From positions 1 through 43,530 of the IMG/VR virus record IMGVR_UViG_2734482773_000003: a stretch of 43,530 bases of DNA. One strand, written 5' to 3'. The notes under the pieces were generated by a model that was not told where the DNA came from, did not search any database, and saw nothing but the letters and a program-made list of their open reading frames with translations. This document shows, one piece after another, positions 1-28,532 of the stretch. Position 1 is the first letter of the stretch; the number at the start of each line of letters is the position of its first letter. The position numbers were made by a program, and so were the translations under genes. This stretch comes from a virus (Duplodnaviria; Heunggongvirae; Uroviricota; Caudoviricetes).

Positions 1-216
1 TTATTGGGTATCCCCTTTAGCAAAGTTGACCTTGTCTTCCCATGACTTGATTTCTGACTCACGCCAGCGCTTCGGATTTCCGGGGATGGTTGGTTTCGGG
101 AATGGGCATGAAAAGCTGGATGGCATACGTGCGGGAGTGCTCCAGAAATAGAGCGTGCTGCGCGATATTTTGTAGCGCGCAAGGATTTCGCTTGTAACCA
201 GGATGCTGTCATTCAT
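1..216 (-). CDS. AlpA-like phage HTH regulator / excisionase-like protein (71 aa)
   Basis: ORF 1..306(-); internal ATG at 216 with GGAG about 7 nt upstream; MNDSILVTSEILARYKISRSTLYFW...KRWRESEIKSWEDK shows the HTH followed by RWxESEI pattern of AlpA/Xis-type regulators; the upstream extension to 306 runs into the IS end hairpin and is unlikely to be coding. Confidence 0.5.
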   Translation of the reverse strand: MNDSILVTSEILARYKISRSTLYFWSTPARMPSSFSCPFPKPTIPGNPKRWRESEIKSWEDKVNFAKGDTQ

Positions 217-219
217 CTG

Positions 220-1520
220 TGATCTCCAGAAAAAGAGCGCCCGGCGCGGGGCCGGGCAAAATGGGGGATAACTGAGCAGTGCTTTCGCACCCAATAGCCA
301 GCTCATAACTGGCTATCAGTTGCTTGACATCCTCCCCGTCCTAAAGGAAGGGGATTCCTACAGCTAGACGGCGATGCCCCGCCGCGAGAATGTTCTTTGC
401 GGCGTTCACGTCGCGGTCATGAGTGGTTCCGCACTCACAACAAGTCCATTCTCTTATTCGCAGGCCTGCTCTACCTTTCGGACTGTTGGCGGAGATAGCC
501 CCGCAACACGAACAAGCTTGGGTGGAATAACTTTCGTTGACCACTTCAAACACCACTGACCGCGCAATCGCTTTATATTCCAGTTGTGTTTTGAGCATGA
601 ACCAGCCAGCGTCCAAAATGCTTTTTGCCATTTTGGTTTTAACCAGTTTCTTACTGCTCGCGTCGCCTACGAATATTGCCGCATGGCTGTTAACCAGCGC
701 CGTGCTGTACTTGTGCAGGGCATCTTTGCGGCGGTTCTTAATTTTGGCGTGTATGGCGCGTACACGGGCTTTTTTGTTTGCACGCTGTGCCTTTCCTAAT
801 GCAGGCTCCAGATCTCGATAGAATCTACCGGCAATCAGCGGATCACCTTCTGACGGGGTGGCGTAGTCTTTCAGCCCTAAATCGATACCCACGGCGGAAG
901 TGGCCGTTGATGGGACAGTTTCGACCTCTACGCAAACATTGAAGTACCAGCGTCCACGGCTGTCTTCTGAAAAGCTTCCAGCACGGAATTTAAATCCTCC
1001 CAAGCCGTAGCTATCCCAGACATTAAAAATCCTGCCAGCGAACCGCACCGCGCCATTTTTCCAGACAGCGCTGCCTATTTTAAACGGCACCCAACCCAAC
1101 GAACGGCGAGATCCCCCACTGACTCGCCAGCGTAAGCGAGAGCGTTTAAATTGCTTCCGTGCCTTGCCGTGAATTGCTGCGATTTCCTGTACGGTATGGC
1201 TGGGGATGGTATACCCGCGCTCTTTTCGCTCTTTAAGGAGCGGTTTCTGAACATCAAACGCCGATAGCCATTGCGGTTTTTGCGCGCCAAAAAAGCCAGC
1301 GTTGCCGTATGCTGCGCTGGTTATCTCGTTTGCCAGATTAAAGATCTGATTGACCTCAAAGGCCATCTGCCGCAAAACGGCTGCGTGCTTGTCTTTAATT
1401 CGGACAGATAGTGTTTTGATCTGAATGTTCATGGTCGTATGTACATATAATGTGTTGATGTTCAGTTGATCGTCGTTATTTGGCGGGATGTCACCCGCCA
1501 CACGGCGATGCGCTGATGCT
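220..1520 (-). mobile_element. TnpB-only IS200/IS605-like insertion sequence (ends approximate)
   Basis: tnpB with no tnpA; subterminal hairpins on both sides of the gene: ggcgggatgtcacccgcc at 1482..1499 (left-end side) and cccggc-gcggg-gccggg at 240..256 (right-end side); exact termini not determined. Confidence 0.45.
341..1432 (-). CDS. tnpB: IS200/IS605-family TnpB (RuvC-like RNA-guided endonuclease), 363 aa
   Basis: ORF 341..1501(-); ATG at 1432 (MNIQIKTLSVRIKDKHA... typical TnpB N-terminus); C-terminal zinc finger CSCCG...CCECG and RuvC-III-like DRDVNAAKNI motif. Confidence 0.8.
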   Translation of the reverse strand: MNIQIKTLSVRIKDKHAAVLRQMAFEVNQIFNLANEITSAAYGNAGFFGAQKPQWLSAFDVQKPLLKERKERGYTIPSHTVQEIAAIHGKARKQFKRSRLRWRVSGGSRRSLGWVPFKIGSAVWKNGAVRFAGRIFNVWDSYGLGGFKFRAGSFSEDSRGRWYFNVCVEVETVPSTATSAVGIDLGLKDYATPSEGDPLIAGRFYRDLEPALGKAQRANKKARVRAIHAKIKNRRKDALHKYSTALVNSHAAIFVGDASSKKLVKTKMAKSILDAGWFMLKTQLEYKAIARSVVFEVVNESYSTQACSCCGAISANSPKGRAGLRIREWTCCECGTTHDRDVNAAKNILAAGHRRLAVGIPFL

Positions 1521-1522
1521 GT

Positions 1523-1864
1523 TTACTTCCGCCAGGCGAAGCTAATTGGCTCCGGCGTAATCCACAGGTGGCGCATGTTCGCCACGTTCACCACATCATA
1601 ATCCCGCGGGTAAATCTCCACGGCATCCCGATCCCCATAGCCAACGGCTGACTTTATCTCCTGCAATGCATCCCAACTGATGCCATCCTTCCACCGGCCA
1701 GAGCTGCCAATGCTGGTGGTGTTCACCGTCAGGCGAATAACACCGTTCTCTTCCTGAAACTCCTGAACAAGAAAGTAAGAGTTAGCCCACACGTTGCTCC
1801 GCTTGGGGCCGTGGCATCGTACCGGCCATTGCGATTCCGGTACCGGCTTGAGTATTCCGATCAC
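1523..1864 (-). CDS. hypothetical phage early protein
   Basis: ORF 1523..1864(-); start is GTG at 1864 with AAGGAG 8 nt upstream; overlaps the upstream gene by 83 nt in another frame, so the start is uncertain (alternative GTG at 1792). Confidence 0.45.
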   Translation of the reverse strand: MIGILKPVPESQWPVRCHGPKRSNVWANSYFLVQEFQEENGVIRLTVNTTSIGSSGRWKDGISWDALQEIKSAVGYGDRDAVEIYPRDYDVVNVANMRHLWITPEPISFAWRK

Positions 1865-2096
1865 GTCTCATGCTCCTTAATTTTTCGATGTGCTTTGCTG
1901 TTTCGATTTCTTCGGCGATCCGCTCAGCCTGTGCTTTGGTCAGCGGCTCGAATTCATGTTGAAAGCGGCCAATGCTGGCGATGCAGGTGCGACCGTTGCG
2001 GATGTAGTGGATTACTTCGTGGGTAGCGCGGAGGATTTTGCAGGACGCGCCGTGGGGATCGGCGTACCAGGTATTAGGCTGGATTATCCTGAACAT
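1782..2096 (-). CDS. hypothetical phage early protein (104 aa)
   Basis: ORF with ATG at 2096 preceded by AAGGTGG 6 nt upstream; co-oriented in the leftward operon. Confidence 0.5.
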   Translation of the reverse strand: MFRIIQPNTWYADPHGASCKILRATHEVIHYIRNGRTCIASIGRFQHEFEPLTKAQAERIAEEIETAKHIEKLRSMRRDRNTQAGTGIAMAGTMPRPQAEQRVG

Positions 2097-2742
2097 TGGG
2101 CACCACCTTAAATTCGATTACCCAGACCCAGGGGTTGGCCTGCCAGTTTTCTTCGCCGTAGATGGACTTCCACAGTTCTTCCCACACCTGAAAGCCATAA
2201 GTAGCAGGGCGGAAGTCGTAAAGACCGCAGCCGATTTCCTTACAGATATCCCCAAGGGTAATGGCCTGCAATCGCTCAACTCGCACTCCGGTAATCTCCA
2301 GAGTTAGACGACTAGCCCAGCGCGGCATGTGAATCGAAGGCGTCCAGCGTATTTCATCAGCCAGCGGCACATTCTCGTAATGAGTTGGAACATGCTCAGG
2401 GTAATCCGCGCGATAAAGTTTCAGGTCCGGCGCGCCAGCACCAGCTTCAGCCCACGTTTCGCGCACCCAGATGCGATCGCCGACGGCACCGAACGGGCAG
2501 GTATAGCCTTCATTCTCATCAGCAACGCCAAATGCATCTTTCTTTGCAGGTTGCAGGTATCCGTTTTTATCGATCACGCCAGGTGTGTACCAGTGTGCGT
2601 TTAAATCCAGATCGTAACCGTTATGCGTTGGGTGGAAACCATCAGACGGCTGAACCTTCATGATGCGCCGCGTCTGCGTCTTTTTGCCGTCGAGGATGGC
2701 GCGCACCATCTCGCCGTTGAAAATCATTCCGCGCTCTTTCAC
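2074..2742 (-). CDS. conserved prophage protein, possible ASCH/PUA-like N-terminal domain
   Basis: ORF 2074..2742(-), GTG start with AGGGGG 5 nt upstream; N-terminal MIFNGEMVRAILDGKKTQTRR resembles the ASCH GxKxxExR-type motif (from memory, weak). Confidence 0.55.
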   Translation of the reverse strand: MKERGMIFNGEMVRAILDGKKTQTRRIMKVQPSDGFHPTHNGYDLDLNAHWYTPGVIDKNGYLQPAKKDAFGVADENEGYTCPFGAVGDRIWVRETWAEAGAGAPDLKLYRADYPEHVPTHYENVPLADEIRWTPSIHMPRWASRLTLEITGVRVERLQAITLGDICKEIGCGLYDFRPATYGFQVWEELWKSIYGEENWQANPWVWVIEFKVVPNVQDNPA

Positions 2743-2957
2743 TGCAACCCCCTTTGCTTATTCTTCAGCTCGATGACGGATTGGCACTCTGCACACGTCT
2801 GGCAGCCGGGAACGGCAGCGCGCCGCGGTTCGGGAATTGGTTCGTCGCATTCTTCGCAATGCTCCGCTGAAACGGCATTACGGTCGATGCGGTGAGCGGA
2901 AAGGGCAGCGTTACGCTGAAGCTCTTCAATCTCTGCTGCGGTATCGATGATGTCCAT
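2739..2957 (-). CDS. TraR/DksA-family C4 zinc-finger protein
   Basis: ORF 2739..2963(-); ATG at 2957 with GGGAG upstream; CEECDEPIPEPRRAAVPGCQTCAECQ is the C4 zinc finger of phage TraR/DksA-like proteins. Confidence 0.65.
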   Translation of the reverse strand: MDIIDTAAEIEELQRNAALSAHRIDRNAVSAEHCEECDEPIPEPRRAAVPGCQTCAECQSVIELKNKQRGLQ

Positions 2958-3010
2958 GGTCAATGCTCCCGGAACTGTCGGTTAATTCGGTTGAAGGTGA
3001 ACGCCAGCAA

Positions 3011-3036
3011 TAAAAAAGGAGCTTTAAGCTCCCGGG
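3011..3036 (-). terminator. intrinsic terminator inside the leftward operon
   Basis: hairpin ggagc-tttaa-gctcc (3018..3032) followed on the minus strand by a U6 run (A-run 3012..3017 on plus); lies just downstream of the exonuclease gene. Confidence 0.5.
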
Positions 3037-3048
3037 TGATGAGTGCCT

Positions 3049-3666
3049 TCATGCTGCACGCTCTGTGATTTTCTGAATTTCAGATTCCAGATCTGCAAGG
3101 AAGGTCTTAACCTCAGACTCGATTTCGCGCGCCAGCTCTTCATCGAAATGAATACGCTTCTTGAAATAGGCGAGGTCAGGCGGCAGGCGATCATCGAAAC
3201 TAACGAAATCACACCATTTCCGCCCGGTGCACATCATCTGTGCATGCATTTGCAGCATGTACTGGCGCTTTGGTTCACCGGTTTTCAGCGTTTCGATATG
3301 GGTCCAGGTATTGGGGCATTTGATTTCGATAAGCCCGTCGTCGTTTACAAGTCCGTCCGGGCTGGCTGCGAATCCGGGTATGGTTGGGTGATCGATGAGT
3401 CCAACTTCAGTGATTTCCGCATTGAACTCATTCAGCGCGTACATTTCGCGTGCCACTGGCTCAAGTTCAGTGCCGCGCATCATCGCGGCATTCGAAAACC
3501 CTTCCTCCAGCTTCCCGGTCAGCCGTTGGCAAATCAGCTCGGCCATGTAGTTCTGGCGGCTGGTGGAGTAGCCCGACTTAGTCCGGGCCATGACATCAGC
3601 CAGGCGACTGGCTGTGACCTTGCCGCAGCGCGCAGCAAACCATTCAGGGGTGCGTTGCTCTATCAT
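3049..3666 (-). CDS. YqaJ-like phage exonuclease (lambda Exo-type recombination nuclease)
   Basis: 205-aa ORF, ATG at 3666 with GGAGG upstream; MIEQRTPEWFAARCGKVTASR...IEIKCP matches YqaJ/viral recombinase-exonuclease motifs; adjacent to recT. Confidence 0.8.
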   Translation of the reverse strand: MIEQRTPEWFAARCGKVTASRLADVMARTKSGYSTSRQNYMAELICQRLTGKLEEGFSNAAMMRGTELEPVAREMYALNEFNAEITEVGLIDHPTIPGFAASPDGLVNDDGLIEIKCPNTWTHIETLKTGEPKRQYMLQMHAQMMCTGRKWCDFVSFDDRLPPDLAYFKKRIHFDEELAREIESEVKTFLADLESEIQKITERAA

Positions 3667-4409
3667 TCAGCCTCCGTCTCTGCGACATTGACAGGTTCGG
3701 CGTTGTCGACAGCAAGACTCATGTCATACATGCGTCGTTTCTCAACTGCGCCGATCACCTGCTTCTCTTCGGCGCTCAGCGCCACCCAGAACTCCTGATA
3801 CTTAACGGTTCCAAGGCGCGCGGCGGACTCACCTTTTGCGATCAGTTCCGGGCGGCGGCTATCTGATTCATGGCCCGCATGAACCTCTGCCGTTGTTCCT
3901 TCAATTACTCGCTCTGCCTCGTCCTGGTCGAAGATGCCAGCGAAACCAAAGGCCAGACGCGCGCACTGGATCAGCGTCTTGTGGCGAAGCATGCGGGTAG
4001 GGTGGGACTGCCATGGCTGAGTGTTGCGTTTGCACTCTCCCATGTACTCGGTGACGATGGTCGGGTGCTTACGGTCTTTGCGGTAAATCTTGCAGGTACA
4101 CGCGCCTTCCTCCTTGTCGTAAGAGAACTCCATGCCGTCAAACTGAGGATGCTCGTTGATAATGCGAGCCCATCCATCAACGCCGACGACCGGGACAATC
4201 CCGCCTTTATCTGGGAATGCGTAAATCTCTTTGGTCCATGGGTTCAGGCCGTACTGGTTGGCGACGATCAACAGGGCTGTAAACTGCTCGTCCGTGACGT
4301 TGCCACCTTTGAACGCTGTATTCTTCAGCGTATTCATCAGGTCTGTACCGGCATCCATGCCGAGGCGTGCGGCCAGTTTCCCGGCCATGGTGGAAAGTGC
4401 AGTACTCAT
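3663..4409 (-). CDS. recT: RecT-family single-strand annealing recombinase
   Basis: ORF 3663..4424(-); ATG at 4409 with GAGGGA 7 nt upstream (ORF-table start is TTG); sequence such as TALLIVANQYGLNPWTKEIYAF is RecT-like; paired with the YqaJ exonuclease. Confidence 0.8.
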   Translation of the reverse strand: MSTALSTMAGKLAARLGMDAGTDLMNTLKNTAFKGGNVTDEQFTALLIVANQYGLNPWTKEIYAFPDKGGIVPVVGVDGWARIINEHPQFDGMEFSYDKEEGACTCKIYRKDRKHPTIVTEYMGECKRNTQPWQSHPTRMLRHKTLIQCARLAFGFAGIFDQDEAERVIEGTTAEVHAGHESDSRRPELIAKGESAARLGTVKYQEFWVALSAEEKQVIGAVEKRRMYDMSLAVDNAEPVNVAETEAE

Positions 4410-4427
4410 TGTTAAATCCCTCAAAAA

Positions 4428-4712
4428 TTAAAACGGGCAGCCGGTACGGTGTTCCCAGTCGTATTCCGCCTGGGCGTAAGCAACTACCGAAATGAAATCG
4501 TTGTAGGCCTCGCCAGCTTTATCGCTGCGAAGCCCTTCGTATGGGCTGGAGTCTATCGGGATCGTGAAGTGGAAGAGGCCGGACGGCTCTTTAGGCATCA
4601 TGTCGATGATTTTCTGCGCCCGGTCGTCGATCCACTTCTCTTTCTCGTCGGTGATCTGCTGCTCAGCCCAGCGCCGATCTTCGATGCGGTCGTAAGTGAG
4701 GTATGCGTTCAT
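4428..4712 (-). CDS. hypothetical phage protein (94 aa)
   Basis: ORF with ATG at 4712 and GAGG upstream; tightly packed in the leftward operon. Confidence 0.5.
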   Translation of the reverse strand: MNAYLTYDRIEDRRWAEQQITDEKEKWIDDRAQKIIDMMPKEPSGLFHFTIPIDSSPYEGLRSDKAGEAYNDFISVVAYAQAEYDWEHRTGCPF

Positions 4713-4719
4713 GGTTGCC

Positions 4720-5691
4720 TCAGTAATGAATTTTCGCGCAGGGGATCAGGTCATCTTTCAGAGCGGTAAGCACTTCGATAGCCTGCTCGCGGGTTAAGCT
4801 GGTTTGGCTGGTGAGCGCGTTAACGATGTTGGTGCCGACCGTCTTGCGGTGCTTAACGTCAGCTTCACGCTTTGCCTGCTCATCGGCGAGGCGCTTCTCT
4901 TCGGCCAGGCGGGCATCTTCGGCCTGTTTGGCCTTCAGGCGCTCGGCTTCAACCGCCGCGGCTTTTTCGCGTTCCGCCCGGGCTTCCGCTTCCTGCTTCT
5001 CGCGAGCTGCACGCTGTTCCGCTTCGACGCGCTGGCGCTCCGCCAGTTCAGCGCGGGCTTTCTCTTCGGCTTCACGGCGCGCTGCGGCTTCAATCTCCGC
5101 TTTGTGCTTCGCTTCGGCATCGCGGCGGGCTTGTTCTGCCGCTTCCTGTTTCAGCCGCTCATCACGTTCACGCTGAGCCTGTTCCGCCAGACGGCGCTGC
5201 TCTTCGCGGTCACGGTCAAAATCCTTGTTCATCAGTAGAGCCATTTCGTGGTCCGCTTCGAACTTGGCAGCCAGTTCCTGATCGAACCTGATGTTCATCT
5301 CCAGCGCTTCGGCGTGCATCGCGTTCATGGCTTCTTCAGCCTTAATGCGTTCCTGCTCGGCTTCCCATTCGGTGAGTGGGCGGCGGGTCGCATCGCGCAG
5401 CTCGTCGCAGGCATCAACGAATCGCTTAATTTCGGCCTCAGCCGGACGCACAGCCTCTTTCAGGCGCTTCAGGTACTCACGGCCCGGCTTTTCGATTGCC
5501 GTCTTGCTGCGGGACACCTGCGCTGCCAGAGAGGCAACACGGTCACGGCCTTTCTTCGTGGACAGGTCCGGCACTTCGTTTACAGCCTGGCGGATTTGCT
5601 CAAGGTACGCGTCAAGGCCGCCCGCTACGTAAAGCACTGGGGCCTGTTCCGGCTTGATTTCGATGACAGTTAAGTCCGTTACTTCGCTCAT
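4720..5691 (-). CDS. phage protein with long charged E/R/K/A-rich coiled-coil segment
   Basis: ORF 4720..5805(-); ATG at 5691 with GGAG upstream; central roughly 150 aa is highly repetitive (EAEARAEREKAAAVEAERLKAKQAE...). Confidence 0.55.
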   Translation of the reverse strand: MSEVTDLTVIEIKPEQAPVLYVAGGLDAYLEQIRQAVNEVPDLSTKKGRDRVASLAAQVSRSKTAIEKPGREYLKRLKEAVRPAEAEIKRFVDACDELRDATRRPLTEWEAEQERIKAEEAMNAMHAEALEMNIRFDQELAAKFEADHEMALLMNKDFDRDREEQRRLAEQAQRERDERLKQEAAEQARRDAEAKHKAEIEAAARREAEEKARAELAERQRVEAEQRAAREKQEAEARAEREKAAAVEAERLKAKQAEDARLAEEKRLADEQAKREADVKHRKTVGTNIVNALTSQTSLTREQAIEVLTALKDDLIPCAKIHY

Positions 5692-5761
5692 GGTTTCTCC
5701 TGAAATTTGGATGTGCAGATCCCGCCCGCGTAATGCCAGGCCGAACGGTTGAATAGGGTGG

Positions 5762-5971
5762 TTAGTGCTGGATAGGGTTGCCGTGACCGTCAAGAAGGAC
5801 GTCAATCACGCAGTCACTGAGTCGGATTATTTCTGCGTCAGTGTGCAGGTATACCCATTTGCGCTCCTGAATGACTGCTGAGACGCGATATGTGCGGCCT
5901 TCATGCAATGCCATCATGCCGGGCGTGACGCACTGGCGAATGAGCGGGGTGGTGTCGTAGTGGTTGATCAT
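5762..5971 (-). CDS. hypothetical small phage protein (69 aa)
   Basis: ATG at 5971 with GAGGTGAAGG upstream; ATGA overlap with the stop of the upstream gene. Confidence 0.45.
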   Translation of the reverse strand: MINHYDTTPLIRQCVTPGMMALHEGRTYRVSAVIQERKWVYLHTDAEIIRLSDCVIDVLLDGHGNPIQH

Positions 5972-6126
5972 GCCTTCACCTCAACCTGTTCCAGGAGGCC
6001 AGCCAGCTTCATATGCCAGCGGTTCATCGTCAGCTTTTCACGCGGGTTAGATACCGACGTCAGCTGCCACTCGTTATCGTTGAGCTTTTTGGCGGTGTAC
6101 TGCTTGCCGTTGTGGGTGACTGTCAT
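5968..6126 (-). CDS. hypothetical small phage protein (52 aa)
   Basis: ORF 5968..6168(-); internal ATG at 6126 with AAGGTGG 6 nt upstream; start adjacent to the stop of the upstream gene. Confidence 0.4.
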   Translation of the reverse strand: MTVTHNGKQYTAKKLNDNEWQLTSVSNPREKLTMNRWHMKLAGLLEQVEVKA

Positions 6127-6127
6127 C

Positions 6128-6337
6128 TCACACCACCTTGAATAAGAACCAGCCCATACCGCACACAATCAGGCCCACAATGGTTATTGCGGAAGACATG
6201 CGTACATGGTCAATGGCTAGTTTTGAAAGTGGCTGGCGATGTTCTTTTTTCGTCAGCGAGTTGATTGCTATGCCGAGCAGAAACGTCCCGACAAACCATA
6301 ATGCGTATATCTTTAAGCCCAACTCCAAATCACTCAT
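6128..6337 (-). CDS. small hydrophobic membrane protein (69 aa)
   Basis: ATG at 6337 with AGAGGA upstream; two predicted transmembrane stretches (LKIYALWFVGTFLLGIAI ... AITIVGLIVCGMGWFLF). Confidence 0.45.
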   Translation of the reverse strand: MSDLELGLKIYALWFVGTFLLGIAINSLTKKEHRQPLSKLAIDHVRMSSAITIVGLIVCGMGWFLFKVV

Positions 6338-6470
6338 AAATCCTCTTGGCCTTATCGCGGCGAACGGAACGGTTAATACAAGACTTCAACGCATTTATTC
6401 AGTGTTTCAATGGGCGGTGGATGGCCGCCGGTTGTCATAACTTGAGCCACTCGTAAATGACTCCAGGTAT

Positions 6471-6494
6471 GAAAAAGCCGCTGGTTAGGCGGCT
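6471..6494 (-). terminator. intrinsic terminator (minus strand)
   Basis: hairpin agccgc-tggttag-gcggct 6476..6494 followed on the minus strand by a U-run (A-run 6472..6476 on plus); overlaps the stop of the upstream gene. Confidence 0.45.
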
Positions 6495-6789
6495 ATTGAG
6501 GTTCGCGCGGCTTGTGGTCGAATCGGTGCCACCCGTCAGTTAATTCAAATGGAGCATAACTTTCCCGGCGCTCAGCGAACCCAAGCTCAACAGACAGAGC
6601 GTGCAGCTCATGCCGACGCTTAATCTGTTCCATCGCAATCCAGTCAGCATCGGCATTGCGCTTTTGAGCTTGCTTCGGCGACAGGTCTAAACTGTTTATT
6701 TCACTTAGTTTCTGCTGACGCTTGATGTCCTGTTTCATATTGCGAAGCGCATTTATCATTGAGTCGATGCGCTTGATGTCGTCGATCAT
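6493..6789 (-). CDS. hypothetical phage protein (98 aa)
   Basis: ORF 6493..6885(-); ATG at 6789 (MIDDIKRIDSMINALRNMKQ...); position corresponds to the kil/cIII region of lambdoid phages, but no sequence-based assignment. Confidence 0.45.
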   Translation of the reverse strand: MIDDIKRIDSMINALRNMKQDIKRQQKLSEINSLDLSPKQAQKRNADADWIAMEQIKRRHELHALSVELGFAERRESYAPFELTDGWHRFDHKPREPQ

Positions 6790-6978
6790 CCCCTTACCCT
6801 CTGTCGTTACCCGCTGATGCGGGAGAAATGCTTTGTGGTGCAGCGCCGGGTGCTTATCTTCCGGTTGCCGTCGATGCAGCTGCAATTCACTGCACTACAA
6901 AACATTCCAGTTATTGCCGGGGTATTTATCCGCGCCCGGCGCGCGCTTTCCCGCTATTCCCCAACAGCAAGAAATCGC

Positions 6979-7320
6979 TTACTCTTTAAGCTCCCCAACA
7001 GTAGAAAGGATATGTTCATGCAAACCATGCGGACCGTGTGCCCTGACTGCGGAAGTGAGATGTTCAACCAGCCCGATGATTTTGACTTTGAGACAAATTT
7101 CACCGGCGTCAGTTGTGCTGACTGTGGTCGCGAAATCACTAAGGACGATGTTGTCAATCAGGCCACGGACACGGTCAAAAAACAGATCGACGACATGCTC
7201 AGGAATTCCCTGAAAGGAGCTGGCTGGAAGTTCAAGTAACTTTAAAAGCTCCCCGGTCTGGGTAAGCACTTCGCTGGCGTCTACATTGAGCAGTAGTGGC
7301 GCCATTTTTTTATCTGACAT
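6979..7320 (-). CDS. hypothetical protein, first gene downstream of the pL-type region (113 aa)
   Basis: ATG at 7320 with GAGGGG 5 nt upstream; acidic protein, not arginine-rich like lambda N; overlaps antisense with the zinc-ribbon ORF 7018..7239(+). Confidence 0.35.
   Translation of the reverse strand: MSDKKMAPLLLNVDASEVLTQTGELLKLLELPASSFQGIPEHVVDLFFDRVRGLIDNIVLSDFATTVSTTDAGEICLKVKIIGLVEHLTSAVRAHGPHGLHEHILSTVGELKE
7018..7239 (+). CDS. small zinc-ribbon protein (74 aa), oppositely oriented in the leftward operon
   Basis: ATG at 7018 with AAGGA 7 nt upstream; CPDCG...(22 aa)...CADCG double CxxC motif; overlaps antisense with 6979..7320(-), so the two calls compete. Confidence 0.4.
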   Translation: MQTMRTVCPDCGSEMFNQPDDFDFETNFTGVSCADCGREITKDDVVNQATDTVKKQIDDMLRNSLKGAGWKFK

Positions 7321-7515
7321 ATACACCCCTCTGATTGTTTACCGTCAGCCCCTCGCAAAGAGCTGCTGGTAAATCGTTTAGCCATAATTGCCGCTCTTCC
7401 TGAGCCCGCCTATGGTCCGACGCATGGTTTACTGTCGCGCCGTTCGACTGACCGAATCTCCACTTCGCCGCTGGCTAACTTCGCTCAGCTGTCGATGTTT
7501 CGTTTCGATGGGGTG

Positions 7516-7560
7516 AATTTAGCGTGATGCTAAATTATGCGCAATAGCAAAATGCTAAAT
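7516..7560. promoter_or_regulatory. OL-type repressor operators (pL region)
   Basis: perfect palindrome aatttagc-gtgat-gctaaatt at 7516..7536 and tagca-aaa-tgcta at 7545..7557 (within 7544..7560); same TTTAGC/GCTAAA half-site as in the cI-cro intergenic region. Confidence 0.55.
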
Positions 7561-7630
7561 TGTTGAATGGTTTTATTTAGCGTATTGATTAATAAGCGAT
7601 TAAAAATTTACAGCGAAGGAATTCGGGACG

Positions 7631-7656
7631 TAAAAAAGCCCGCGCGATGGCGGGCT
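7631..7656 (-). terminator. intrinsic terminator downstream of the repressor gene
   Basis: hairpin agcccgc-gcgatg-gcgggct 7637..7656 followed on the minus strand by U6 (A-run 7632..7637 on plus). Confidence 0.55.
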
Positions 7657-7675
7657 TGAGGGGTTTTGCGTGAGG

Positions 7676-8353
7676 TTATGGGATGTTTAGTATTTTGGCA
7701 TCAACCACAACGCCGATGATTTTGCAGTTTCCATTAATTTCTAGCATTGGATATGCGGGGTTAAGGGGCTTTAGGAAGCGTCTGCCGGCATCGATTACAA
7801 GCTTCTTAAAGGTCGCTTCGTTATCGCCTTCTAGCTTCGCGACAACCAGCTTTCCGTTGCGCGGCTCGACTTCAGGATCAACAAGTATCGCTGCTCCCTC
7901 AGGTATGCTCAGTCCAGCCGGGGAGGTCATAGAATCCCCTTTAACGTCCAGCCAGAATGAATCTTCTGAGCAGTCAACAGTCGTGTCATACCAGCGATCT
8001 ATCGCTCTTCGGTGATAAGGTTCTACAGCTTCCATCCATTGCCCCGCGCTTACCCAGCTGATTACAGGATAACTTCCTTTTGTCTCGTTCAGTCCTCGAA
8101 ATGCAACGTTCGAAGGTTCTTCACTGGCGTGTAAAACATCCATCCAGCCAAAAGGCAGATCAAGCGCAGTTTCAATTTTGCGAGCCATCTTATCGCCGAT
8201 ATTGCGATGAGGGTTTGGTCCCAGTAGCTGGCTAAGCGCAGCCGGACTTGTCTCGATGAGCTCGGCAAACTGCGCTTTGGTCATTCCAGACTCGTGCTGA
8301 CGCTTCTCGTACAGCGCTTCCAGGTTGGCTTTTCTGATTTCTTTATTTTCCAT
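7676..8353 (-). CDS. cI: CI-like prophage repressor (HTH N-terminus plus S24 LexA-like autopeptidase C-terminus)
   Basis: ORF 7676..8470(-); ATG at 8353; N-terminal HTH (MTKAQFAELIETSPAALSQLL); C-terminal S24 motifs GDSM (Ser) and KLVV...K (Lys); divergent from the cro-like gene. Confidence 0.85.
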   Translation of the reverse strand: MENKEIRKANLEALYEKRQHESGMTKAQFAELIETSPAALSQLLGPNPHRNIGDKMARKIETALDLPFGWMDVLHASEEPSNVAFRGLNETKGSYPVISWVSAGQWMEAVEPYHRRAIDRWYDTTVDCSEDSFWLDVKGDSMTSPAGLSIPEGAAILVDPEVEPRNGKLVVAKLEGDNEATFKKLVIDAGRRFLKPLNPAYPMLEINGNCKIIGVVVDAKILNIP

Positions 8354-26989: not shown

Positions 26990-27424
26990 ATGGCTAAAGA
27001 CGGAAAGCATATTATCCACGCCGGCGGCGTGTTCCCTAATCCGCTGCTTAACCGCGAAGGCGGGGCGGCTGCATCGACTCTGCCTGGTACTGTTGGCTTC
27101 TTCAGTACTGCTGACAAGTTCACGGCCTCTGTGGTCGGGGCAGAATCCGCCATCAAGTATGTGGCAAACAAAGACTACCTGCGCTGCCTGAGTGTTGATG
27201 ACGCAATCCCAGCCAATGAATTGGTTGTTGGTATTCATCCGCTGCCTGGCATGTTCCTAAATGTGCGAGCAGCAGCGGGCACTTACACCAAAGGCCAGCC
27301 GGTTGCAGTAGCCAACGGTCAGATCACTGCGGTTGTAGATGATGTCGCCGTATTCGCTTATGTCGAAGAAGATAAAGCAGTCACTGCGGTGGCGGGCGAT
27401 CTGATTCGCGTTGTGTTCAAATAA
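26990..27424 (+). CDS. head decoration / capsid accessory protein
   Basis: 144 aa, Gly/Ala/Val-rich beta-type sequence directly upstream of the major capsid gene. Confidence 0.5.
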   Translation: MAKDGKHIIHAGGVFPNPLLNREGGAAASTLPGTVGFFSTADKFTASVVGAESAIKYVANKDYLRCLSVDDAIPANELVVGIHPLPGMFLNVRAAAGTYTKGQPVAVANGQITAVVDDVAVFAYVEEDKAVTAVAGDLIRVVFK

Positions 27425-27434
27425 GGAGCACTGA

Positions 27435-28532
27435 ATGTTTGTATTCTCCAAGTCTATCGGCGAGAAGACCGGTAACCTCGCGGTAAACCAGGCGCAATGG
27501 CGCGCTCTCGAACTTGAGCGAAACGCCAGTGCTCAGGCAGCAGCTGATTTTCTGGCGCGCACTCAGTTCCGTGGTGATGCAGAAAACGCCCCTTATCTCG
27601 ACGCGGTGAACGCAGTTGACGATATCCGCCGCCTGTATCGCGCTTTCGACACAACTGTGCTTCAGCAGTTCGAGCCAAATACCGAATTCACCCTGCTGAA
27701 CGATCTGATGCCGCTCTCTCGCTCCGTGCGAATTGAGCAGTCTCGTTACGATTACGCTCGTACCGGCGGCCGCGGCTGGGCTCATACTTCCATGTCCGGT
27801 CAGGTTGGTGCGGCGCTGGATGCTCGCAGCTATTCCTTCGATGGCACCATGGTACCTATTCACGACTCGGGCTTTAAGTTCGAATGGCGTGATCCAATCT
27901 TCAACAGCCCACAGGCATTGCAGTCGCAGGCTGATGCGCAGCGTGGTTCGGTTGAAGACGTTCAGCGTCGTTACGTTGACTACATCTTCAACGGCTTCCG
28001 CGACAAAGCTGGCAACTTCGCAGTGTTTGACGGTCTGACCTGGAAAGGGTTGCGTGACGATGAGCGCGTAGCGCAGATCGACCTTGGCGCTTCAGGCCTG
28101 AACATCGATTTTACCTCTGGCACAGCAACGTCTCAGGACATCCGCGCCGGGGCAATCGTGCTTCGTGATCAGATGCGTCGCGTAAACAACCAGTATGCAG
28201 AGCAGACCTGGTATGTATCCGGCGAAATCATCTCCAACCTGGAACGCTACTTCTCCGACAACTTCCAGTCCGGAACGATCATGGATGAAATCCTGAAGCT
28301 GACCGGTGTAGCGGCGATTAAAGAAGACAGCCAACTGTCAGGTAACGAAATCGTCATCGTTCCACTGAGTGCAGGTGTCATTGCTCCAATCGTCGGCCAG
28401 GCTATCGGTACCGTTGCATCTCCGCGTCCTGAGTACAACAGCGACTACATCTGGCGCACCTGGGGTGCAATGGGGTTGATGGTCAAGCAGGACATCAACA
28501 ACAAATACTCCGTAATTCACGCATCAAGCTAA
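27435..28532 (+). CDS. major capsid protein
   Basis: 365 aa, position after scaffold/decoration genes; GGAG upstream; assignment by size and position. Confidence 0.65.
   Translation: MFVFSKSIGEKTGNLAVNQAQWRALELERNASAQAAADFLARTQFRGDAENAPYLDAVNAVDDIRRLYRAFDTTVLQQFEPNTEFTLLNDLMPLSRSVRIEQSRYDYARTGGRGWAHTSMSGQVGAALDARSYSFDGTMVPIHDSGFKFEWRDPIFNSPQALQSQADAQRGSVEDVQRRYVDYIFNGFRDKAGNFAVFDGLTWKGLRDDERVAQIDLGASGLNIDFTSGTATSQDIRAGAIVLRDQMRRVNNQYAEQTWYVSGEIISNLERYFSDNFQSGTIMDEILKLTGVAAIKEDSQLSGNEIVIVPLSAGVIAPIVGQAIGTVASPRPEYNSDYIWRTWGAMGLMVKQDINNKYSVIHASS

Follow-up and report, generated by a model that had tools for sequence, protein, structure and literature searches.

A stranded IS200/IS605-type tnpB locus in a lambda-like prophage of Escherichia coli, with a predicted omega-RNA whose guide matches related phages

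Introduction

The closest described relatives of the locus reported here are IS200/IS605-type insertion sequences and their RNA-guided nuclease TnpB. IS608 of Helicobacter pylori inserts 3' of the tetranucleotide TTAC and has its right end in TCAA, with subterminal hairpins that are similar at its left and right ends, while in IS605 the genes tnpA and tnpB are divergent. The transposon-associated motif (TAM) of ISDra2 from Deinococcus radiodurans is TTGAT. The subject of this study is a tnpB locus in a 43 530 nt stretch of DNA (IMG/VR record IMGVR_UViG_2734482773_000003, positions 1 to 43 530; hereafter the window), which constitutes most of a lambda-like prophage integrated beside yciA in E. 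coli. The window is 100% identical in sequence to E. coli strain 53 (NZ_CP048359), the RefSeq annotation of which was compared across the region. Coordinates are those of the window and all features listed with coordinates are on the minus strand.

Roles for TnpB have been described in transposon retention and homing (Meers et al., PMC10055086) and in plasmid gene drive (Mears et al., PMC11870625). Large TnpB branches in which the RuvC-II glutamate is replaced by glycine, compensated by an alternative glutamate, are predicted to be active (Altae-Tran et al., 2023; PMC10691335), and a glutamate six residues upstream of the zinc finger has been termed 'Ealt' (Yoon et al., 2023; PMC10711439). Our reading of the present locus, which we hold to be rather probable, is that of a stranded IS200/IS605 TnpB/omega-RNA module which, if expressed, would cut relatives that do not carry tnpB, favouring its own retention or homing.

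Results

To place the element, the window was compared with 80 fetched loci encoding TnpB proteins with 56-85% amino acid identity to that of the window, from Enterobacterales, Oceanimonas, Endozoicomonas, Thiothrix/Thiofilum, a Psychromonas metagenome-assembled genome (MAG) and others, and with three insertion-free references (the prophages of E. coli 20A24 and E. coli FDAARGOS_1277, and phage HK639). All of the approximately 75 relatives with a readable 3' end stop at ...G(G/A)TGTCAA and are unrelated directly after it, and homology to the insertion-free references stops at 321-323, beyond which these read GTCA (plus strand) where the window has TTGACATCC.... Both comparisons place the final base of the element at 324, and on the tnpB strand the junction in the window reads ...GGATGTCAA|GCAACTGATAGCCAGTTATGAGC..., compared with ...TGAC|GCAACTGATAGCCAGTTATGAGC... 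at the uninterrupted sites. The right end proper (324..354) is composed of a subterminal hairpin at 333-354, the loop of which contains the stop codon (TAG) of tnpB, and the terminal sequence ...GGAGGATGTCAA| with its conserved terminal tetranucleotide. A first-pass annotation of this DNA had drawn the element from 220 to 1520; the family termini and the insertion-free flanks instead give a span of 324 to ~1499.

Two side observations were made on right ends elsewhere in the family. The terminal hairpin is ~13 nt longer in the Psychromonas copies, where its base pairing is kept. A second E. coli family copy, with 84% nucleotide identity and the same right-end terminus, lies on plasmid unnamed4 of E. 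coli ET210 (NZ_CP100991, 1502-2610). This 91 kb plasmid looks like a P1-type phage-plasmid and the neighbours of the copy are ddrA, an icd-like gene and ash; upstream the copy differs from the window and likewise has no left end, and a hairpin stands 9 nt ahead of the ATG.

An omega-RNA-like scaffold was located at 324..530 (the 5' limit is approximate), comprising the last ~200 nt of tnpB together with the right end and terminating at the right-end boundary. An alignment of the 230 nt before this boundary in 44 non-identical copies yielded a consensus structure with 38 base pairs, and compensatory double changes occur at 15 of these. In window coordinates the consensus helices are 516-511/470-465, 506-501/481-475, 453-447/392-386, 385-379/374-368, 367-365/360-358 and 354-346/341-333, and most of the covariation signal falls in three of them (385-379/374-368, 367-365/360-358 and the terminal 354-346/341-333). 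Paired cells amounted to 97.4%, against 45-56% when the 3' partners were slid by 1-3 columns, and none of 500 shuffles reached the observed pairing values. The window copy retains 37 of the 38 consensus pairs. The coding sequence contains several of these helices, which agrees with a drop in synonymous diversity over the last 73 codons of the gene (synonymous-codon entropy 0.97 versus 1.39 bits; Mann-Whitney p = 1e-6).

This conserved predicted structure at the 3' end is the signature of an omega-RNA or right-end element RNA (reRNA) scaffold of ~200 nt, overlapping tnpB, ending at the right end and followed by a guide from the flanking DNA. The earlier proposal of a guide RNA overlapping the tnpB 3' end and the right end therefore stands as a conserved predicted scaffold supported by covariation, and the opposite possibility, that no conserved right-end RNA structure exists, is rejected. 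The position assigned to it at that time (roughly 220..480, abutting the start of the next gene) has to be moved, with the scaffold at ~530-324, the guide at ~323-304 and phage DNA thereafter. The covariance-model scan that had been proposed alongside folding returned only sub-threshold Rfam matches, namely HgcC (RF00062; 19.0 bits against a gathering threshold of 50) and sot0042 (RF02656; 14.8 bits against 88), so that membership of either family is not supported. Both weak matches coincide with the tnpB 3' end on the same strand, and HgcC and sot0042 are the two archaeal Rfam families later recognised as TnpB-overlapping RNAs.

The predicted guide segment, GCAACTGATAGCCAGTTATG, follows directly after the right end at 304..323 (323 to ~304) and consists of phage DNA. 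A second match with two or fewer mismatches was not found within the window. The copy in the window is preceded by TCAA and not by a TAM of the form TNAC, for which reason it should escape cutting. The TNAC motif was derived from 30 independent left-end flanks of the family (TTAC 14, TCAC 9, TGAC 4, other 3), and differs from the TAM of ISDra2; TGAC, the predicted TAM of this site, is also used by the closest relative, a Salmonella copy (L205). Insertion-free relatives read ...TGAC|GCAACTGATAGCC... at this position, and phage HK639 has CTGAC|GCAACTGATAGCC. On the right side the relatives' TGAC|GCAACTG fits TNAC, whereas the left junction has been deleted and the insertion event is not reconstructable. 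The alignment of flanks to uninterrupted prophages, by which it had been hoped to define both ends, thus fixed the right end at 324 and left the other junction without a base-by-base reconstruction.

The DNA into which the element had inserted is a conserved non-coding module of the phage (275..323, ~45-49 nt, GCAACTGATAGCCAGTTATGAGCTGGCTATTGGGTGCGAAAGCAC) containing an 11-bp hairpin at 290-315. It lies outside the element, upstream of a terminator and of the xis gene, and had no match in Rfam. In insertion-free relatives the module always begins right after the stop codon of whichever early-left gene precedes it, and many different genes do so; the TAM consequently overlaps the stop codon where this is TGA, and the corresponding tetranucleotide is TAAC or TAGC in phages whose preceding gene ends in TAA or TAG. 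The module was found in at least 120 IMG/VR contigs (including loci L085-L204 and L216 onward). Among 5426 complete E. coli genomes it is present in 40; tnpB occupies the site in ten of them, and in the remaining ~30 the module is uninterrupted, ~20 of these with a match that extends through TGAC. At least 120 IMG/VR contigs, a lower bound, contain the 20-mer formed by TGAC and GCAACTGATAGCCAGT, the first 16 nt of the guide.

Further into the phage DNA is a hairpin resembling an intrinsic terminator (228..258), identified by sequence pattern, in which an 8-bp GC-rich stem (258 to 238) is followed by the T-run CTCTTTTTCT. It sits at least 66 nt outside the element and occupies the same place in insertion-free phages. 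The hairpin at 240-256, which had been taken for an end of the element, is this terminator-like structure of the phage itself. From sequence, the primary tnpB/omega-RNA transcript is likely to end at 258-228. The stretch that leads from the right end to the start of xis (217-323; 107 nt), terminator included, does not differ from that of uninterrupted relatives. The suggestion that the insertion had separated the xis-like regulator from its original upstream context is consequently not upheld, since the 1.18 kb were added further upstream.

The tnpB open reading frame (ORF) spans 341-1501 from a GTG codon. The likeliest start is the ATG at 1432 (MNIQIKTL...), which is favoured because the resulting protein of 363 aa (341..1432) matches the length of essentially all relatives. 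Matches above the cut-offs were obtained for Pfam OrfB_IS605 (PF01385) and Cas12f1-like_TNB (PF07282), and NCBIfam guided_TnpB ('RNA-guided endonuclease TnpB') scored 229.8 bits against a cut-off of 100. An AlphaFold model generated from 42 homologues (mean predicted local distance difference test score, pLDDT, 81) gave as its best fold match the ISDra2 TnpB ternary complex 8h1j, over the full length and with a template modelling (TM) score of 0.72. Profiles and fold together identify the domain architecture of a TnpB/OMEGA nuclease. A Y1 (HUH) TnpA was not found in the element or anywhere else in the window, by tblastn with the TnpA of a relative (L206; Pfam Y1_Tnp), the best E-value being 0.33. 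The description of a full-length minus-strand tnpB without tnpA was correct.

When compared with ISDra2 (8h1j, 8exa and 8bf8), the window protein shares the fold, the RuvC-I and RuvC-III aspartates, the zinc finger, a scaffold overlapping the 3' end of the gene and a guide taken from the flank. It differs in sequence (~21-23% identity), in having Gly at the position of E278 together with Glu300, and in the absence of tnpA and the truncated left end of the window copy.

Residue conservation at the active site was scored over 82 relatives. The zinc finger is complete (C307, C310, C331 and C334), and RuvC-I D184 and RuvC-III D341 are retained and align with ISDra2 D191 and D361. The canonical RuvC-II glutamate, ISDra2 E278, aligns with Gly256, which is invariant in 82 of 82 relatives and is followed in all of them by Asn or Asp. 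Glu300, equally invariant (82/82), lies six residues before the first CxxC (E300-x6-C307xxC310). The modelled strand 252-256 terminates in G256, and E300 comes after the strand 294-298, an arrangement that matches the beta-4 to beta-5 shift described for rearranged TnpBs. The earlier statement that the RuvC motifs and zinc finger are intact holds for the zinc finger, D184 and D341 and has to be amended for RuvC-II, where the alternative is Glu300.

With its Glu to Gly change and its E-x6-CxxC before the zinc finger, as in RIIr (PMC10691335) and Ealt (PMC10711439) TnpBs, the window TnpB is a member of the documented rearranged (Ealt, or RuvC-II-rearranged, RIIr) class and is predicted to be active; this likeness is one of motif pattern, at the level of the class and not of a position on the published tree or of a named branch such as RIIr-5. 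Pro-Fanzors differ from it, as the RuvC-I motif of the window is DLG and not DPG and the element is linked to Y1/IS200-605 and not to IS607. The change to glycine is a clade-wide documented rearrangement and probably not an inactivating one, because the clade includes multi-copy, tnpA-linked elements and because the ratio of non-synonymous to synonymous substitution rates (dN/dS) between lineages of the family is 0.13-0.17.

The missing canonical glutamate raises the alternative that the protein is a domesticated, TldR-like RNA-guided regulator, which would bind a host or phage promoter without cutting it. Two reports (PMC10705468, PMC13418256) describe phage-encoded TldRs in Enterobacteriaceae prophages, and the window likewise has a TnpB relative in an enterobacterial prophage without a transposase. 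Unlike a TldR, however, the protein is full length and keeps its C-terminus, with D184, E300, D341 and the zinc finger invariant across a clade that includes multi-copy, tnpA-linked and evidently transposing elements. Its predicted guide is the local right-end flank, as in transposon omega-RNAs, and no other site in the window matches it at up to two mismatches. We consider domestication of this kind highly improbable.

Several sequences related to the tnpB gene were noted in other settings. At least 24 loci of this TnpB family occur in the Psychromonas MAG (L061-L084) and at least 10 in Thiofilum flexile (L019-L040). F-like E. coli plasmids (~66-83 kb) carry genes annotated 'ykiE: protein YkiE' that are 77% identical to the 3' third of tnpB (window 324-684), in a match that begins exactly at the right-end boundary. 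These plasmid 'YkiE' genes have the appearance of tnpB 3'/omega-RNA remnants to which the name of a small protein has been given. A tnpB segment with 72% identity is present in Salmonella phage LPSTLL (virulent or isolated; 27051-27755), annotated as 'putative head morphogenesis protein' in one record and as 'transposase' in the other.

Complete members of the family have tnpA divergent from tnpB, and a left end with the layout TNAC, ~17 nt, a hairpin like that of the right end, a second GC hairpin and the tnpA stop. The outer hairpin (CCCCnnCC-TTTTAGG-nnGGGG) is visibly similar to the right-end hairpin. An nhmmer profile of the left end, built from 10 relatives, found no left end in the window, the sole match being the right-end hairpin. 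Local alignment with the left end of L205, which at 89% amino acid identity is the closest relative, covered window 1498 to 1433 with a score of 39 (shuffles 18 +/- 3.6) and was significant only from the second hairpin inward. The window thus has a truncated left end (1433..1499) consisting of the tnpB 5' untranslated region and the inner hairpin at 1482-1499, and the outer ~50 nt, which in relatives contain the TnpA-binding hairpin and the TAM-adjacent cleavage site, have been lost. Between the inner hairpin and the stop codon of the adjoining DUF7694 gene there are only 23 nt. The hairpin at 1482-1499, previously proposed as an end of the element, is indeed derived from the insertion sequence and is the second, inner one of the left end; the one recognised by TnpA is gone. 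Of the two ends that were expected to be recognisable only the right one is.

TnpA-mediated transposition is impossible, even in trans, because the left end is broken. These findings bear on the alternative of a non-autonomous but complete tnpB-only IS200/IS605 element that has both its ends and could be mobilised by a TnpA supplied in trans. Copies without tnpA but with a whole left end do exist in the family (Lelliottia L009, Oceanimonas L015 and Salmonella L205), and the window has both an intact right end and a hairpin upstream of tnpB. The ~50 nt with the right-end-like hairpin and the TNAC-adjacent cleavage site are nevertheless absent, the profile detects no left end, homology to L205 starts at the second hairpin and 23 nt are all that remain before the DUF7694 stop codon; a complete element is highly improbable. 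The label 'tnpB-only IS200/IS605-type element' is apt as to descent and to the lack of tnpA but not as to completeness, since the outer left end is deleted. Judged by its sequence, the element is an immobilised IS200/IS605-family remnant of IS605-like layout, with tnpA and tnpB originally divergent, at 324 to ~1499. It shares with IS608 and IS605 a TNAC-type 4-nt target, a right end in TCAA, similar end hairpins and the divergent gene order, and differs in that the window copy, a remnant and not an insertion sequence, has neither tnpA nor the TnpA-binding left end. We are highly confident of this anatomy, that is of the ends, the scaffold and the truncation.

A left end further upstream, at 1865-1890 where flank homology resumes, was considered and rejected, as no left-end signal is present in the window; the homology gap at 1523-1890 is ordinary mosaicism. 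DUF7694 was likewise rejected as cargo of the element, since it is absent from all family copies elsewhere and is also present in phages that have no tnpB. An empty site with DUF7694 directly before the module was not found in the complete E. coli genomes, where DUF7694 comes with tnpB in 9 of 9 cases, and the phage collection also gave no match. In IMG/VR phages that have DUF7694 (up to 98% amino acid identity) and no tnpB, a further small ORF always precedes TGAC|GCAACTG, which suggests that the deletion that clipped the left end may also have taken such a gene.

The right-end/flank junction was found in four IMG/VR contigs, all >99% identical to the window around the junction. Two E. coli prophage backgrounds share this junction together with the truncated left end, one at yciA and the other at dsdC with a different xis. 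These data point to a single insertion and a single truncation, followed by ordinary mosaic spread. None of the 10 tnpB carriers contained a second, uninterrupted target, although with only ~0.05 expected this comparison has no power. The dsdC-side prophage (L215; E. coli L73, NZ_CP033378) carries the DUF7694-tnpB-module block, and its homology to the window breaks at ~226, in the terminator region; it is a mosaic exchange of the integration module.

The leftward early operon of the prophage comprises, in order, DUF7446, a kil-like gene, gamL, bet, exo, a traR-like gene, an ASCH-like 'phage-like protein', DUF4222, DUF7694 and, as its last gene, tnpB, which is on the same strand as gam, bet and exo and downstream of them. 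The gene that follows tnpB (1..216) is excisionase-like, and the integrase lies just beyond the window edge. Annotation and position confirm the placement of tnpB between this xis-like gene and the early-left genes. The label 'AlpA-like' formerly given to 1-216, which resembles its RefSeq name (a helix-turn-helix/AlpA-family regulator), gives way to excisionase on the basis of the match to phrog_1553 (excisionase, 8.4e-30; Pfam AlpA E = 0.69) and the flanking context.

The start of the DUF7694 gene is uncertain. Read from a GTG, the ORF at 1523-1864 encodes 113 aa and shares ~80 nt with the DUF4222 gene upstream of it (1782-2096), whereas the RefSeq form of 89 aa (270 nt) shares ~10 nt with that gene. 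A second terminator-like hairpin with a T-run lies at 3017-3033, between exo and the traR-like gene. The genes from traR to tnpB are situated beyond it, and antitermination is therefore probably needed for their expression.

Discussion

The sequence of events that we propose begins with a complete or tnpA-less element, which would have inserted by means of TnpA 3' of a TGAC that overlapped the stop codon of an early-left gene, at the start of the conserved non-coding module. The TGAC, the upstream phage gene and the outer left end, along with any tnpA, would then have been lost in a later deletion, by which the inner left end came to lie 23 nt past the end of the DUF7694 gene. In its present position tnpB would be transcribed, probably by antiterminated early-left read-through on induction or infection. 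The transcript would cross the right end into phage DNA, end at the phage terminator (258-228) and be trimmed to the scaffold and a guide of ~16-20 nt, GCAACTGATAGCCAGT.... TnpB loaded with this RNA would cut related phages and prophages that have TGAC followed by GCAACTGATAGCCAGT, which is the uninterrupted site, while the carrier copy, with TCAA before the match, would be spared. With Red recombination encoded alongside, such cuts may favour retention of the tnpB module and its copying into relatives, or else place the relatives at a disadvantage.

A number of observations weigh against this reading. The right-end hairpin of the window carries one T-C mismatch, TGAC is a minority TAM (4 of 30 flanks), and the activity of Gly/Ealt TnpBs of the IS200/605 type is a matter of modelling and of analogy with Fanzors. 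A simple scan found no sigma-70-like promoter near tnpB or within 1-7700, which is weak evidence since this crude scan also misses pL; the terminator-like hairpin at 3017-3033 between exo and tnpB makes expression uncertain. Few E. coli genomes (10 of 5426) carry tnpB at the module, and all copies at the site share one junction, with no sign of repeated homing beyond mosaic exchange. Within the immobilised lineage there are 2 synonymous and 5 non-synonymous substitutions and no sign of purifying selection since immobilisation, although seven substitutions are too few to inform. One copy at the yciA position (L214; E. coli A14, NZ_CP028760, 2841-3728) has a tnpB truncated at its 5' end at window 1214. 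There the truncated gene adjoins a partial gene for the anti-CBASS protein Acb1 and head genes, a fusion that indicates a large internal prophage deletion.

Much of this would equally be expected of an inert relic, a recently stranded passenger with neither activity nor benefit that is decaying in the prophage, and to this the loss of the left end and tnpA can be added, as can the small number of IMG/VR contigs (four) in which the module is found with tnpB. The state of the locus argues otherwise. The ORF, the catalytic and zinc-finger residues and nearly all of the RNA pairs are intact, the ORF is unbroken in 9 of 10 carrier E. coli genomes across two prophage integration modules, and an intact TnpB with its omega-RNA and an abundant matching target would need only transcription. 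We regard the inert relic as unlikely, although it is the most substantial of the alternatives. That this copy is an active nuclease in vivo, as its sequence would allow, appears to us close to evenly balanced and tipped slightly towards the negative, and a real role in phage-phage competition or homing is doubtful.

The stranded module that we favour resembles TnpB retention and gene drive systems, and the homing endonucleases of phages, in that its guide is frozen on the insertion site, TAM-flanked sites are abundant in relatives, and bet, exo and gam are encoded alongside. Unlike TnpB drive systems it has no transposase partner, and by analogy only the homing or exclusion half could operate, among co-infecting or co-resident phages. 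With the left end broken and transposition thereby excluded, RNA-guided cutting alone would have to account for any selective effect of this copy.

A solo tnpB remnant is a common and ordinary kind of locus, and the interest of this one lies mainly in a guide that matches a site common to many related phages. Its annotation can be corrected, with ends at 324 and ~1499, the terminator and the excisionase separate from the element, and an active site of the Ealt type. The locus is a natural test case for an Ealt/Gly-type IS200/605 TnpB, with a full predicted omega-RNA, the TAM TNAC deduced from family flanks and a natural 20-nt target, and a clean system in which to ask whether TnpB can serve, independently of a transposase, as a homing or exclusion nuclease between phages. 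A bolder view, which we put forward as improbable but worth stating, is that a stranded TnpB/omega-RNA may be a phage weapon or gene drive with its guide fixed on a module common to many lambdoid phages. It would be co-transcribed with the Red genes in lytic growth and would cut co-infecting, superinfecting or co-resident relatives free of the insertion. If this were true, the module would exclude such relatives or convert them to tnpB carriers, and, operating without any transposase, would be the RNA-guided equivalent of a phage homing endonuclease.

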